The position numbers and the translations under genes are program-made. Shown here piece by piece: positions 6,911 through 60,663 of a DNA stretch of 64,000 bases. The DNA comes from an uncultured virus (IMG/VR IMGVR_UViG_2860837431_000002) (lineage: Duplodnaviria > Heunggongvirae > Uroviricota > Caudoviricetes), in IMG/VR virus record IMGVR_UViG_2860837431_000002, positions 62,001 to 126,000 of that record; one strand, given 5' to 3'. The notes under the pieces are model-generated. The model was not told the origin of the DNA. It saw only the letters and a program-made list of their open reading frames with translations, and searched no databases. Within the stretch, counting starts at the first letter, position 1. Every line of letters begins with the position of its first letter.

Positions 6911-7162
6911 TTAGTGTGACTTGTTTCTTAGTTTAAGGAATACAAAATAGATGATCCACAACAATATGGCAATGATACATGTGACTATGAATATTATATT
7001 GATTAGTGTTTGTGCTTCGCTGCTGAAGTAATCCTTAATGAGTTGAAACATTAAGAATAAGCCAATGAATGTGATATGGGTAAACCATAATGAGAATCGT
7101 TTCATGTTTGCAATGTGCTTGATCATGTTATAATATGGGTAGGAACTAAAGGAGAAGTTCAT
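6911..7162 (-). CDS. yoyJ: Two-TM membrane protein of the yonT-yoyJ/SR6 type I TA locus
   Basis: 83 aa hydrophobic protein immediately downstream of yonT. Confidence 0.8.
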   Translation of the reverse strand: MNFSFSSYPYYNMIKHIANMKRFSLWFTHITFIGLFLMFQLIKDYFSSEAQTLINIIFIVTCIIAILLWIIYFVFLKLRNKSH

Positions 7163-7245
7163 TCCCCTTTAGCTTAGCTCTCATCGGCGTATACGTTGGC
7201 GTTGTCTCTTTGGTCGGAGCCGCTTGCGTATACGCTTTTTCTTTT
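7141..7245 (+). ncRNA. SR6-like antisense antitoxin RNA (ends approximate)
   Basis: Extended -10 TGTTATAAT at 7126-7134 on +; GCGTATACG...TGCGTATACGC-TTTT hairpin; overlaps yonT 3' end and yoyJ 5' end. Confidence 0.6.
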
Positions 7246-7357
7246 TGCTTGTCCCATTCTTTAGGTTTCTTACCTTCTCAACTATTGTTAGACTGTTGAT
7301 TGTAAGAACCGTTAAAGATATGAGAAAAGCAACTATGATACCCACTTTCTCAAGCAC
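7181..7357 (-). CDS. yonT: Type I toxin YonT (58 aa)
   Basis: N-terminal TM helix and highly basic tail; GTG start after AGGAGG. Confidence 0.9.
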   Translation of the reverse strand: MLEKVGIIVAFLISLTVLTINSLTIVEKVRNLKNGTSKKKKRIRKRLRPKRQRQRIRR

Positions 7358-9938: not shown

Positions 9939-9967
9939 TAGACAAATACAAATAATATGTATATAAT
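9939..9967 (+). promoter_or_regulatory. SigA promoter of yonP-yonO with an operator-like repeat in the spacer
   Basis: TAGACA-17 bp-TATAAT; spacer contains AAATACAAATAATAT. Confidence 0.7.
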
Positions 9968-9993: not shown

Positions 9994-10188
9994 ATGCAAA
10001 AGGATTCAAAGAAAGTAACGTACATGTTTAGTAATTTAATTGGATTTTTAGAGACTACTATTATTGAAGGAACTGCTTCACAAGAAGAAAACACTCTTTA
10101 TGAGGACTATAAACTTTTTGGAACAATCGATAAACAGAGCTATACATACAAAAATCTTGTACATAAGTATCTAAAAAGCGACTATTAA
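9994..10188 (+). CDS. yonP: Hypothetical protein YonP
   Basis: 64 aa, AAGGAGGTG SD, upstream of yonO. Confidence 0.85.
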   Translation: MQKDSKKVTYMFSNLIGFLETTIIEGTASQEENTLYEDYKLFGTIDKQSYTYKNLVHKYLKSDY

Positions 10189-10227: not shown

Positions 10228-12102
10228 TTGAAAGGAAAAAAAGATGGCCTAAATAAGCAAGTACATATTTACAGTATTGATACTTCTGCTTTTTATAATG
10301 ATCAAGAAAACAAATTACATAACAAGATTTTAAAATCATATAGGTACAGAGATCATCTCAAAAAACTTGAACATGTTGATAAAAAACATAAGAAGTACAT
10401 AACGCAAAGGATTATTTCCTTAAAAGAAAATCTTTATAACGCCTTTAACAATCATAATCAAATAAGAACACTTAGAACAGATTCCCTGAAAGATAATAAT
10501 GTGATTTCATTATTTGATTCTGTCTTAACTCGAACGTTGGGAATCAAAGAAAACTCTCTCTCTGAAGAGATCATGGTTGTCCAAACTTATCACTTTCAAA
10601 TTTTAAGGGACATTATTGATAAAGGATTCATACATAACAATGAGAAATACGTTTATTTCACTAGCAGTGCCGGTCAAATACGAACCAAAAAGTCATGTTT
10701 TATCAAGCAAAGCACCTTAGATAAGTATCAAAATGCTTTAACTTGTGGCCTTAGCGTGGAGCAAATCAATGCTCAAGGTGGAAGCAGCATAAACAAATGG
10801 AATAGCTACATGGCCTTATCGAATAGCGCCAGCAGTCCATGGGAAATTGATATTGATAAAGTAATTGTGGTAAATGACTTAGAAACAAACGTTTCTAGCC
10901 TGGTTGATTATATTGACCGTGATACATATGAAATCACTCGTAAGATTATGGATATTCCTATAGAACATACAGATGGTTGCGGAATGATGCTTCCCAGTTT
11001 GAGCCAGAAAAGCTTTATGGTCAGATTACCTTGGGTTAAGGGTCTGCTAGTTCCATTTGATTTTAGAAGGTTTGCTGAAAAACACAGTTCATTTATAGTT
11101 AAGGACGTCTACGGTAAAGAATGGGACATTATTAAAGATGATATCCAAATAATTTTTACGAAAAGTCAGTTTAAGATGTGGAAGTACTATGATTCATGGG
11201 ATGACTATCGTTATAAATTCAAAAAGTATGGATGTCTTGGGGCTAAGTTAAATGAAGAAGATCCATCTGTTGAGGGAAAACTGACTTACCAAATGCTACA
11301 AACACTCACTGATATCACAGATGAAGAATTGAAACAAATCAGCTCAAAGACTGTTAGTGAGATTACTCAATTAGGCACTGATAAAGAAACAATGATGAAA
11401 GTTTTGGGGGCTACCGAGAAAAATAAACATAAGACAAGCCTTCAAGAAGCACTACTGATATATCCAGAGCTGTTAAATGATGATCACACTAAAGAAATCA
11501 TTAAAAATAAGAAGAAGAGTATGATTAAGGACGCCAAATCAGGAAAATTACTTGTTAGTGACGCCAGGTATACGTATTTATGTCCAGATCTTTATGCTTT
11601 TTGTGAAAGACTGTTTCTTGGAATTGAAAATCCAAAAGGATTGCTCGCCGGCAGCAATGTTTATTGTTCTTTATATAATGAAGGGCATATTGATATCCTC
11701 CGCTCCCCTCACCTATACAGAGAGCATGGAGTTAGGTGGAACAAAAAAGATGAGGAATATGAAAAGTGGTTTATTACCCCAGGTGTTTATACCAGCATAC
11801 ATGATCCGATATCCAAGCTGCTACAGTTTGATAACGACGGAGATAAGGCCTTAATTATTTCTGATGAGCTAATCGTTAATATAGCCAAGCGTAATATGAA
11901 GGATATTGTTCCACTATATTACGAAATGTCAGTAGCCCAGAAACAAGAGATTAATAGCAGGAACATTTATGAAGCACTAACTCTTGCCTACGGAATCAAT
12001 ATCGGGGAATACAGCAACAACATCACTAAGATATGGAACAGTGACAATATAAACCTGGACGTGATCAAATGGTTATGCATGGAGAATAACTTTACTATCG
12101 AT
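10228..12102 (+). CDS. yonO: Single-subunit phage RNA polymerase YonO, exon 1 (625 aa)
   Basis: Catalytic DxDGD (QFDNDGD), TDGCG, RSPH motifs; ends ...NNFTID at the splice site. Confidence 0.93.
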
Positions 12103-13398
12103 TAAATTTATAGTCGCGTCGCATAGCGATATGCGGATGAAAAGTCAGTGAACCTAGAAAACTAGGGTGTGCATTCAGCGAAAAGTAGCGATAGGAAATG
12201 ATCGTTAATGAGTGTGCTAACAGGGGAATTCTAATTAATACATTTTACATTTTGAACAATGATATTTAAAACAAGGGGGTGACAAAGTGAAGTTTATAAA
12301 TGAGGATGAGCATAAATATTTGAGTGGGATATATAAGATTGAGCAGATAAGCACCGGCTTAATATATGTGGGGAAAACTAAGATGAAATTTATTAAGCGT
12401 TACTGGCATCACACTTGGAAGCTGAAAAACAATTCGCACTGTAATCGACATTTGCAGAATAATTGGAATAAATATGGAGAAAACGATTTCCAATTCCATG
12501 TTTTACAAACAGTTGATCCAAACTCAGATATGAACGAATTAGAAACTCACTACATAAATGAACTAGGTGCCTATTTAAATGGCTTTAACATGACCACCGG
12601 CGGAGAGGGCAAGAGTAATTGCAAGATGTCTGACTCCACCAAAAAGATTATTGGGGAAAAGAATAGGATTAATAACATCGGAAGAAAGCTTAGTGATGAG
12701 ACTAAAGCCAAAATGAGTAAGGCAAGAATTGGCAGAAAGCTCTCTCCGCAGCATAAGGAAAAGCTTTTACAATCTAGAATGAATAAAAGGCATTCGCCAG
12801 AATCTAGATTAAAGATGCGTCAGTCTCATTTAGGGTCAAAAAATAAATCCTCAAAAATAAATGAAACGAAAGCACACGAGATAAAAGTTCGATTGATTAA
12901 TGGGGAAAAGATGTCTGAAGTATCAAAATCAATGCGTGTTTCCTACCCCATCGTTAAATCAATATTACAGTGTAAAGTATGGAATCATATTCATGTTACT
13001 GGGTGGGACGACTTTATTCTTAAATACAAAAGCAAGAAGAAAAGCACTCTTACTCCAGAAGAAGTATTTTGTATAAGAGAACTTCTTAAAAAAGGGTTAT
13101 CAGCACCCCATGTTGCAAAAATGTGTAACATAAAACCCAATGTTGTTTATGGAATTAAACAAGGAAGAACCTATAAAAATGTGAAATGAATGTTGAATGT
13201 AGAATGTATTATATGAAAACCCTGTGCCAAGCGTTTACATCATGCTGAGAAGTACTTGTAAATGAAGGTGCAACGACCATCCTTTATGGAGTAATAATAA
13301 GGTGAAATTCCTTATTATGAAGCGCTGACCATCTGTCTAGTACAGATGATGATATGGTCTATTCCCTAATAAATATCGGGAAACCGAGGGTATCAAAG
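12103..13398 (+). mobile_element. Group I self-splicing intron (IA-like, 1296 nt) in yonO
   Basis: Exon ends in U with P1 CGAU/GUCG U-G wobble; terminal G 13398; P3 GTCAGTG 12144/CGCTGAC 13323; P4 CAGGG 12221/CCCTG 13220; P7 GACCA 13275/TGGTC 13355; P8 CATCTGT/ACAGATG; P9 TCGG-GAAA-CCGA; removal restores the in-frame junction NNFTID|FAKT. Confidence 0.92.
12287..13189 (+). CDS. Intron-encoded GIY-YIG homing endonuclease with NUMOD3 repeats and C-terminal HTH
   Basis: GIYKI...YVGKT; repeats GRKLSDETKAKMS, GRKLSPQHKEKL, HSPESRLKM; own SD. Confidence 0.92.
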   Translation: MKFINEDEHKYLSGIYKIEQISTGLIYVGKTKMKFIKRYWHHTWKLKNNSHCNRHLQNNWNKYGENDFQFHVLQTVDPNSDMNELETHYINELGAYLNGFNMTTGGEGKSNCKMSDSTKKIIGEKNRINNIGRKLSDETKAKMSKARIGRKLSPQHKEKLLQSRMNKRHSPESRLKMRQSHLGSKNKSSKINETKAHEIKVRLINGEKMSEVSKSMRVSYPIVKSILQCKVWNHIHVTGWDDFILKYKSKKKSTLTPEEVFCIRELLKKGLSAPHVAKMCNIKPNVVYGIKQGRTYKNVK

Positions 13399-14031
13399 TT
13401 CGCAAAAACCTTGTTCATGCCCACCCGCCCTGATCACGTTGATGAGAAAATCAAAGATTACATAAAAAATAAAGTGCCCCACTTCTTCATCAATGCCAAG
13501 GATAAAGAAGAACATAGCGTAGAATCGATTAATGAAAGTACAGTAAATAAGTTAGACTCAATTATTCCTAATGAACGAATCAACTTTAACGCAGTTGCAG
13601 GAAAATTTGATTACCGTTTCTTACTTCGAAATAAAAAAGTGAAACTTGATGAAACGGTTATCAATGAGTACAAACGTCTTGACCGAAACAAAAAGTGGCT
13701 CATGAATAATGAAGAAATTAAACCAGGAGAAAAGCTATACGTCTATAAGATTATCAAACAAAGATTAATGGAAATACATAACGATGAGCAACTTATTACA
13801 GATGTTTTAGTTAAGTACCTATATAAAAAGAAGAGTAAATTCAAATCGACTTTGTGGGAGTGCTTTGGCGAACATATATTGGAAAATTTAAAGATTAACT
13901 TAAGGAATTTTAAGGCTTGTGGGAATTGCGGAAAAATGTTCAGTCCCTCTTCTAATAAATCTAAATACTGTAACAATTGCTCAAAAAAAATGATCTTAGA
14001 TAAACATAAACGCTACAATAAAAAAAGATAA
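13399..14031 (+). CDS. yonO: YonO exon 2 (210 aa, C-terminal Zn finger); spliced protein 835 aa
   Basis: [17 protein letters not shown]... in frame after the terminal G; CGNC...YCNNC. Confidence 0.9.
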
Positions 14032-60242: not shown

Positions 60243-60402
60243 AGATACATTCTATCTAATCTTAAAACATATGATTCACATTGGTAATTTATTGTGAATT
60301 TTCAACGACAAGGGTATTTATGTATAGTATAATATTTCCTGTACATCAAGTTTGCTCACTCAAGGGAGTCTTGCTCATCCCCTAATGAAAGGGGGTGATG
60401 CT

Positions 60403-60486
60403 ATGTCAACATTTCAGGCATTAATGCTGATGCTTGCGTTCGGGTCGTTTATAATTGCCCTGTTGACGTATATAAATAAAAAATAG
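60403..60486 (+). CDS. BsrE/BsrH-type type I toxin (27 aa)
   Basis: MSTFQALMLMLAFGSFIIALLTYINKK; SD sequestered by a CATCCCC/GGGGGTGATG hairpin; terminator ~60573-60608. Confidence 0.88.
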   Translation: MSTFQALMLMLAFGSFIIALLTYINKK

Positions 60487-60663
60487 ACCTCCCTTGAGCC
60501 TCAGAACCTTAAAGGGATAGGTCTACGTAGATTGAACATCGAGCAAGCCCTTTGATGGGCAGCTTTTTGTACAGATCCGGGGTGTTGGTAGCACCCTGGT
60601 CTTTTTTATTTTATGCAATCCAATTAAACAAATGCATTTTATACGTAAAAACGTATAATCTTC
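60480..60663 (-). ncRNA. Convergent antisense antitoxin RNA (SR4/SR5-like; ends approximate)
   Basis: Minus-strand TTGCAA-18 bp-TATAAT (60699-60670); hairpin TAGACCT...AGGTCTA plus U-run at the toxin 3' end. Confidence 0.7.

Follow-up and report, generated by a model that had tools for sequence, protein, structure and literature searches.

A probable mobile group I intron with a GIY-YIG endonuclease gene in yonO, the single-chain RNA polymerase gene of SPbeta-like phages

What becomes of an essential polymerase gene when an insert of more than a kilobase, beginning with a stop codon, sits within it? In phage SPbeta, the single-chain RNA polymerase YonO transcribes 37 late genes and deletion of yonO abolishes plaque formation (PMC5467207). 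In the 64,000-nucleotide (nt) stretch of DNA analyzed here (the window; positions 62001-126000 of a 131,607-nt IMG/VR provirus record, IMGVR_UViG_2860837431_000002, which is SPbeta-like and has a CheckV completeness of 100), yonO is interrupted at positions 12103-13398. The insert is very probably a mobile group I intron of the type found in Gram-positive phages, related to the intron in the DNA polymerase gene of phage SPO1. A preliminary description, made from the letters of the window, had proposed that a group I intron with a homing endonuclease splits yonO, and this view is borne out by colinear intronless alleles, relatives of the SPO1 type, covarying helices, and an open reading frame (ORF) for an I-TevI-like GIY-YIG protein. 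All features described below are on the + strand of the window.

The gene and the limits of the insert are well defined. Exon 1 (10228..12102; 625 codons) encodes the catalytic motif QFDNDGD, is ∼97% identical in protein to cluster P0001 (839 amino acids [aa], named "DNA-directed RNA polymerase YonO" by its sources), and is colinear with yonO of SPBc2. In the ORF list it appears as 10228-12105, a 625-aa frame with the C-terminus NNFTID and an immediate in-frame TAA at 12103-12105. Exon 2 (13399..14031; 210 codons and a stop) starts with FAKTLF and ends in a zinc-ribbon-like CxxC...CxxC segment; when 14 full-length YonO homologs are aligned, these Cys positions do not vary. A scripted join of 10228-12102 and 13399-14031 gives 835 aa and a stop, colinear with the 839-aa YonO of the intronless SPBc2. 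The host gene is thus a YonO-type single-chain RNA polymerase gene by its full-length similarity to SPbeta YonO and its catalytic DxDGD motif (as QFDNDGD). The Pfam profile PF05183 for RNA-dependent RNA polymerases (RdRPs) matches three of four YonO homologs tested; comparison of YonO exon 1 and of the 14-homolog alignment with solved structures gave no polymerase match.

At the level of DNA the junction is exact. The sequence of SPBc2 reads ACTATCGAT|TTTGCAAAAACC, and that of the window reads ACTATCGAT, then 1296 nt, then TTCGCAAAAACC; the insert (12103..13398), whose first codon is the in-frame TAA and whose last base is G, is missing from SPBc2 at precisely this point, between yonO codons D625 and F626. 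DNA alone would permit the boundaries to slide by 1 nt (T follows both junctions), and the coordinates 12103-13398 are settled by the U12102.G12113 pair and the terminal G13398. Excision of these positions restores colinearity with the intronless allele in protein and DNA across ID|FAK, so that both the 835-aa product and the coordinates that had been predicted are correct, as is the expected colinearity of intronless alleles.

Evidence that the insert is a group I ribozyme comes from its helices, which were placed by hand and then fixed by coordinates. Formal covariation was scored in a MAFFT alignment of six natural introns that lack an ORF (from phi3T, two 330-nt yonO alleles, a distant yonO-like allele, and the Enterocloster and Perkons phages). 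Across the alignment, 93.8% of 484 cells are paired, 36 of 83 pairs are changed on both sides, and 0 of 500 shuffles are as good; slid-partner controls gave 31–43% paired cells and 4–8 doubly changed pairs. A second script examined a 10-member family, which amounts to nine distinct sequences. Core helices P3–P8 and the P3/P7 pseudoknot show covariation, and P3, P4, P6, and P7 are each 100% paired. In the natural 400-nt ORF-less allele of phi3T, the unconstrained minimum free energy fold has z = −6.3 (0 of 100 shuffles fold as well) and recovers P1, P3, two family-specific hairpins, A and B, P4, P5, P6a, P7.2, and P8. Among eight introns from other genes, RNAalifold recovered both P7.2 and P8, and compensation is seen in 11 of their 13 pairs.

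The 5′ part of the structure begins at the splice site. In P1 (12099-12104/12111-12116), exon CGAU and intron UA pair with UAGUCG; the U12102.G12113 wobble lies at the 5′ splice site, and 96.9% of cells are paired. The combination of a U.G wobble in P1 and a 3′-terminal G is present, and P1 is kept in all five aligned sequences with letters there. The P2 hairpin (12120..12135; CGCAUA-GCGA-UAUGCG) has a GNRA loop and 100% of cells paired, with five of six pairs changed on both sides. P3 (5′ strand GUCAGUG at 12144-12150, 3′ strand CGCUGAC at 13323-13329) is paired in 10 of 10 family members, where all four variable positions are compensated. Hairpin A (12153..12166; CCUAG-AAAA-CUAGG), between P3 and P4, is kept in all 10 members and its closing pair covaries (CCUAC/GUAGG in BSP10, CCUAU/AUAGG in SPO1). 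Hairpin B (12169..12217) consists of a 9-base-pair (bp) lower stem, a 7-bp upper stem, and the invariant loop AGGAAAUG; the helix is 100% paired in the formal alignment, and among nine members scored the lower stem covaries extensively and is fully paired in eight, with one mismatch in SPO1. An alternative P3, formed by the 3′ strand of hairpin B and GAAGCGC, was rejected because the stem of hairpin B itself covaries and the alternative is poor in Moonbeam and EFP01. P4 (ACAGGG at 12220-12225, CCCUGU at 13220-13225) covaries with ACCGGG/UCCGGU in Moonbeam. The 15-nt 5′ strand of P5 (12237-12251) pairs with 13196-13210, a helix also seen in the unconstrained phi3T fold, and its loop encloses the endonuclease ORF.

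The 3′ part holds the remainder of the core. P6 (13226-13228/13267-13269) and P6a (13234-13239/13257-13262) both have 100% of cells paired. J6/7 with the 5′ strand of P7 (13270..13280; GCAAC GACCAU) aligns to the R element of the Rfam group I intron model RF00028, and J8/7 with the 3′ strand of P7 (13348..13359; GAUGAU AUGGUC) to its S element. Three of the six pairs of P7 (13275-13280/13354-13359) are changed on both sides. Most members have GACUA/UAGUC in P7, for which GACCA/UGGUC of the yonO intron had been read as a compensatory variant; this is upheld, and the Enterocloster phage intron supplies a third, GGUCA/UGACC. An extension of P7.1 and P7.2 between P7 and the 3′ strand of P3 is a mark of subgroup IA. 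Here, P7.1 (13280-13290) is a 3-bp hairpin and P7.2 (13294..13318) is AUAAUAAGG-UGAAAUU-CCUUAUUAU, in which six of nine pairs are changed on both sides. P8 (13331..13347) is the hairpin AUCUGU-CUAGU-ACAGAU. P9 (13364-13390) is CCCU/AGGG with an inner CGG-GAAA-CCG hairpin and is followed by a 3′ tail to the terminal G13398. Of the ribozyme core proposed in the preliminary description, the P1 wobble, P3, P4, P7, P7.2, P8, the GNRA P9, and the terminal G are present, and P7.1 is doubtful.

Similarity to other introns is consistent with this structure. In BLAST comparisons, intron positions ∼19–138 are 70–78% identical to introns of other phage genes, and relatives of this 5′ part are found in the DNA polymerase genes of Moonbeam and of SPO1 and its relatives, in nrdD of EFP01 and CS01, and in genes of the Enterocloster and Perkons phages. 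The 5′ module from P2 to P4 is 73–78% identical to the introns of Moonbeam DNA polymerase, EFP01/CS01 nrdD, and SPO1 gene 31, which carries the label "contains intron" in its record. The last ∼130 nt match the intron of the PH15 terminase gene, where the annotated coding sequence is a join that skips a SegB-like endonuclease, and also many records of Staphylococcus, Listeria, Enterococcus, and Bacillus phages. In these records the stretch from P9 to the terminal G (13364-13398) is ∼90% identical. Contigs of a food metatranscriptome run (X10; bin depth 20.7 and 69.4) align to the conserved cores of the intron but depart from it at 12138 and 13289, and probably stem from related introns of this family carried by different phages.

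The insert also encodes a protein of the kind that mobilizes such introns. The homing endonuclease gene (12287..13189) is intact, has a GUG start, and encodes 300 aa with a GIY-YIG domain, a NUMOD3 motif, and a C-terminal helix-turn-helix-like region. A Shine-Dalgarno-like sequence, AAGGGGGUGA (12273..12282), was read from the sequence 4 nt upstream of the start. The Pfam profiles for GIY-YIG (PF01541; E 3.7e-7, 30.8 bits vs a cut-off of 22.6) and NUMOD3 (E 2.5e-5, 24.5 bits vs 20.4) both match, and PHROGs places the ORF in homing-endonuclease families. Residues 13-103 align to residues 3-92 of the catalytic domain of I-TevI (PDB 1MK0/1LN0; E 2.4e-8), with the GIY, YVG, Arg, Glu, and Asn positions of a GIY-YIG catalytic domain all kept. 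Its cluster at 90% identity has 84 member sequences and its next relatives are 58% identical; identity with the 300-aa intron endonuclease of Moonbeam was considered and rejected (best E 0.28). No sigma-70-like promoter was found on the + strand inside the intron, and the endonuclease is presumably expressed from the yonO transcript. The loop that holds the ORF differs among relatives: whereas the yonO intron has it in P5, the introns of Moonbeam, EFP01, and CS01 use the P6 loop and that of SPO1 the P8 loop. Endonuclease genes thus entered a common ribozyme scaffold more than once, independently. Between the endonuclease stop and the 3′ strand of P5 is a 7-nt tandem duplication, TGAATGT TGAATGT (∼13187-13196), that neither phi3T nor the contigs of runs X8 and X10 possess. 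It accounts for the length of 1296 nt in the window versus 1289–1291 nt elsewhere.

The distribution of the insert among SPbeta-like phages is that of a mobile element. A megablast search of 11600-13900 against a phage collection returned 24 SPbeta-like records, whose states were counted from coverage and checked directly in SPBc2, phi3T, Goe11, and BUCT083. The full intron (whole query covered) is in seven records (SPbetaL4, L5, L6, L7, Goe11, Goe14, and BUCT083). An ORF-less 400-nt form (62% covered) is in nine (two of phi3T, phi3Ts, three phi3Ts/SPbeta hybrids, one phi3T-SPbeta hybrid, SPR, and SPbetaL3), and eight are intronless (42–44% covered; two of SPBc2, Goe12, Goe13, Hyb3, SPbetaL1, L2, and L8). 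The phi3T insert is 400 nt, lies at the same point, and equals the window intron minus ∼890 nt of ORF, with the last ∼41 nt of the ORF kept; the phi3T form is thus a deletion derivative. Among 80 IMG/VR loci with relatives of YonO, 12 are interrupted precisely between residues 625 and 626 (seven of 1289–1291 nt, three of 400 nt, and two of 330–331 nt), 63 are uninterrupted, and 5 have other irregularities; some of these records may duplicate phage or genome records and the counts are not of independent events. The two short inserts, in velezensis-type alleles (L049:5876-6205 and L053:5876-6206), lack an ORF, have a short and different P5, and show no deletion scar of the phi3T type; they may be an older ORF-less form or the outcome of an independent loss. 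Some IMG/VR provirus copies of yonO (L160:3480-5938; L031/L122) align as several frame-shifted pieces at 77–97% identity and are possibly frameshifted pseudogenes or sequencing errors.

Identities within and around the intron point to recent movement. In four other velezensis-type alleles (L050, L052, L054, and L055), exon 1 is 80–81% and exon 2 is 74–77% identical to the window, whereas the 5′ part of the intron, the ORF, and the 3′ part are 97–98% identical. The contrast between intron and exons shows that the intron moved recently between diverged alleles, and the presence/absence polymorphism at one site, with an element more alike than its flanks, is the pattern of homing. The first codon of exon 2 (window 13399-13401) is TTC in all 16 intron-bearing alleles examined (the window and 15 others) and TTT in all 22 close intronless ones, a split that could reflect co-conversion of flanking bases or a difference in the target site.

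The insertion site is in a conserved part of the polymerase. In the alignment of 14 full-length homologs, which are 56–85% identical, residues N621, F622, I624, and D625 before the site and A627, K628, T629, and L630 after it are invariant. A C-terminus of exactly NNFTID occurs in 13 of the 120 close clusters listed, and 3 of 150 diverse representatives end at NNF.ID. The site had been compared with the VDFPKT motif of cellular RdRPs. That the block is conserved was confirmed, but the RdRP likeness is tentative: some YonO-like proteins have NNFTIDYPKTG at the site, the Pfam RdRP profile covers it in one of four homologs tested (P0046), and a text search of the literature for "DFPKT" gave nothing relevant.

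The same site is occupied in much more distant YonO-like genes in IMG/VR (∼45–68% protein identity), with introns at this position in L105, L111, L118, L163/L164, and L165. These introns share the ribozyme lineage of the window intron, as they start with TAAATT.TAGTC, contain a GTGAACCTAGAAAT block, and end with CGGGAAACCGAGGGTAT. In L118, a GIY-YIG ORF 54% identical to that of the window occupies the same place in the intron. The distant introns differ in length (226–1270 nt), as do their host proteins in sequence. Occurrence of one lineage at one site in such diverged genes suggests that the association of this lineage with site 625 is old. A second recurrent insert in distant YonO-like genes lies inside the catalytic motif, at QFD|xDGD (∼residue 535), and has sequences like a group I S element (L096:5166-6114, L162:4732-5741, L163:2653-2897, and L165:2598-2948; proteins P0143, P0169, P0193, P0194, P0199, P0215, P0228, and P0231). 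The window yonO has no insert in this motif.

We infer splicing, endonuclease activity, and the target of the enzyme from these features. As judged from the family, transcription of yonO would run through the intron, and the RNA would fold into P1–P9 with the P3/P7 pseudoknot. Free guanosine would attack after U12102, in the U.G pair of P1, and the freed exon 1 would attack after G13398. The exons would be joined as ...ACUAUCGAU|UUCGCAAAA..., with a predicted spliced junction of ACTATCGAT|TTCGCAAAA, and translated into the 835-aa YonO. Translation of unspliced RNA would stop at the TAA and yield only a 625-aa fragment. The GIY-YIG endonuclease would be made from its own ribosome-binding site in the loop of P5 and, in a cell holding both alleles, is predicted to cut intronless yonO close to the point of insertion. 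Repair templated by the allele with the intron would then transfer the intron together with neighboring exon bases.

Several observations weigh against a group I intron that splices and homes. Contigs that cross a splice site in four RNA-library runs (X1, X2, X8, and X10) are all unspliced, though assembly tends to lose minor variants and some contigs may derive from DNA. The joint 12102^13399 is not listed among the contigs of these runs, and contig data are uninformative on splicing. Hairpins A and B, between the 5′ strand of P3 and J3/4-P4, match no textbook group I element and are shared with the SPO1-type polymerase introns. P7.1 is just 3 bp and has neither covariation nor other independent support, and by eye P10 is weak, with no more than ∼2 bp. 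Three of the six rows used for covariation are close yonO alleles that are not independent, and the structure was derived from one row. In the endonuclease, the HTH_38 match is below the Pfam cut-off (19.7 vs 27).

Rfam is a further point against it. An Infernal search with group I models had been proposed as a check, and RF00028 does match in part (22.8 bits at 13137-13381, E 0.0034, in a 1.5-kilobase scan), aligning the R element GCAACGACCA and the S element GAUGAUAUGGUCUA. However, the scores of the window (22.8 bits) and the phi3T allele (19.7 bits) fall below the gathering score of 50. Rfam over the whole window gave no group I match at the gathering threshold, and a whole-window scan by E-value likewise missed the intron. 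This objection is weakened because related introns score poorly as well: the intron of SPO1 gene 31 aligns to part of the model with just 25.4 bits, and the ORF-less relatives of Enterocloster CB457P1, Perkons, and BSP10 have no match at E ≤ 1. RF00028 is insensitive to this intron subfamily.

Could the intron instead serve the phage as a regulatory checkpoint, with its rate of removal or a needed cofactor timing YonO production and hence late transcription? Given the in-frame TAA at the start of the intron, full-length YonO can arise only from spliced RNA, and the intron is in the gene of the sole late RNA polymerase. The preliminary description had joined this dependence to a probable dependence of late transcription; the former holds, but regulatory gating is conjectural. 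Full, ORF-less, and intronless alleles coexist in otherwise similar viable phages, which fits a dispensable selfish element, related introns sit in polymerase, nrdD, and terminase genes, and no regulatory feature was found. We therefore consider a checkpoint improbable.

It is far less probable still that the insertion is dead, leaving an element that no longer splices, a broken yonO, and a prophage with defective late transcription. This would agree with the exclusively unspliced contigs of the RNA runs and with GenBank records that annotate two genes (yonO_1/yonO_2 in Goe11, two hypothetical proteins in phi3T). But the isolated phages phi3T, Goe11, Goe14, BUCT083, and SPR carry the yonO intron, and plaque-forming isolates would not be expected to bear a dead insertion in a gene that is essential in SPbeta. 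Ribozyme helices are still compensated, all 15 intron-bearing loci examined keep an unbroken frame in exon 2, and the provirus itself is complete by CheckV. Together, the intron in isolated phages, the compensated pairs, and the open exon 2 argue indirectly that YonO function, and hence splicing, has been kept. Assembly of a split polymerase without splicing, from the 625-aa exon-1 protein and an exon-2 protein started in the intron at ATG 13354, is equally implausible even though an ORF from this ATG (13354-14031) covers exon 2 and annotators of phi3T and BUCT083 picked similar starts, as no Shine-Dalgarno-like sequence precedes 13354, the ATG is within P7, a helix kept for RNA pairing in introns of unrelated genes, intronless alleles encode a single chain, and the whole ribozyme would be pointless.

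With splicing as the preferred reading, the endonuclease may have a further effect. It may, though we hold this to be somewhat doubtful, act as a weapon between SPbeta-like phages, in that a resident or co-infecting phage with the intron would cut the intronless yonO of its rival. All 22 close intronless alleles examined have TTT, and all 16 with an intron have TTC. The cut would disable the essential late RNA polymerase of the rival unless repaired by uptake of the intron. Such an effect would parallel the action of gp210 of phage PhiPA3 on PhiKZ. If true, marker exclusion and interference by introns could be studied conveniently in temperate phages, using phi3T, SPbeta, and the Goe phages.

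Two features outside the intron were also recorded. A strong sigma-A-like promoter match, TAGACA-17-TATAAT (11/12), is at 9939-9967, upstream of a small ORF (9994-10188) and yonO. Rfam matches in the window are to SR6 antitoxin RNA and BsrG RNA (7143-7246 and 60342-60599), type I toxin-antitoxin RNAs of SPbeta.

Public annotations do not mark the intron. Goe11 has yonO_1 and yonO_2, phi3T has separate hypothetical proteins, and no intron is indicated in Goe11, phi3T, or BUCT083. In phi3T, SPR, Goe11, Goe14, BUCT083, the SPbetaL series, and many prophages, yonO is listed as two genes or as a truncated product of 625 aa, where the correct product is predicted to be one spliced polymerase of ∼835 aa. 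A literature search for a yonO intron (SPbeta, phi3T, Goe11, homing endonuclease) found no paper that describes it, and the word "intron" is absent from the main text of the preprint of Kohm et al. Introns in other phage RNA polymerase genes have already been published (201phi2-1 and PhiPA3).

We take the yonO intron, for which the evidence is strong, to be an ordinary selfish element with no new mechanism; mobile group I introns in essential, conserved phage genes, RNA polymerase genes included, are well known. Its main use is in correcting annotations and as a convenient model of homing in temperate Bacillus phages. Within one phage group, every stage in the life cycle of a homing element is represented at the same position (an unoccupied site, the endonuclease-bearing intron, and two ORF-less kinds), and SPbeta-like phages offer an easy genetic system for homing, co-conversion, and possible effects on competition.

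Among known systems, the intron of SPO1 gene 31 belongs to the same ribozyme family, with 73.5% identity over intron positions 44–126, and shares P3, hairpins A and B, P4, P7.2, and the S element GAUAUAGUC with the yonO intron. It differs in that its host is a DNA polymerase gene, its ORF encodes an HNH endonuclease in the loop of P8 rather than P5, and its P7 is GACUA/UAGUC. The SPO1 intron reportedly self-splices in vitro (work attributed to Goodrich-Blair et al. in 1990). The endonuclease resembles I-TevI of the T4 td intron in its modular layout with a NUMOD3 linker motif, but likeness in sequence is confined to the catalytic domain and the C-terminal DNA-binding part differs. Within the same phage group, SPbeta has group I introns in bnrdE and bnrdF, which are ribonucleotide reductase genes and so differ from yonO; passages of one review mention no other SPbeta introns (PMC8270828).

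The closest parallels in kind of host gene are in Pseudomonas phages. An intron is in the RNA polymerase gene gp273/274 of 201phi2-1 (PMC2919709), and a mobile intron with the HNH endonuclease gp210 is in the virion RNA polymerase (vRNAP) gene gp211/209 of PhiPA3, a jumbo-phage intron for which interference competition has been demonstrated (PMC11620839). As with yonO, the gene that is split in these phages is an essential one for RNA polymerase, and the intron is mobile and associated with a homing endonuclease (PMC11620839, PMC2919709). The polymerases of PhiPA3 and 201phi2-1 have subunits of the multisubunit type and the enzyme is an HNH nicking enzyme, whereas yonO encodes a single-chain polymerase in a temperate Bacillus phage and its intron carries a GIY-YIG endonuclease.

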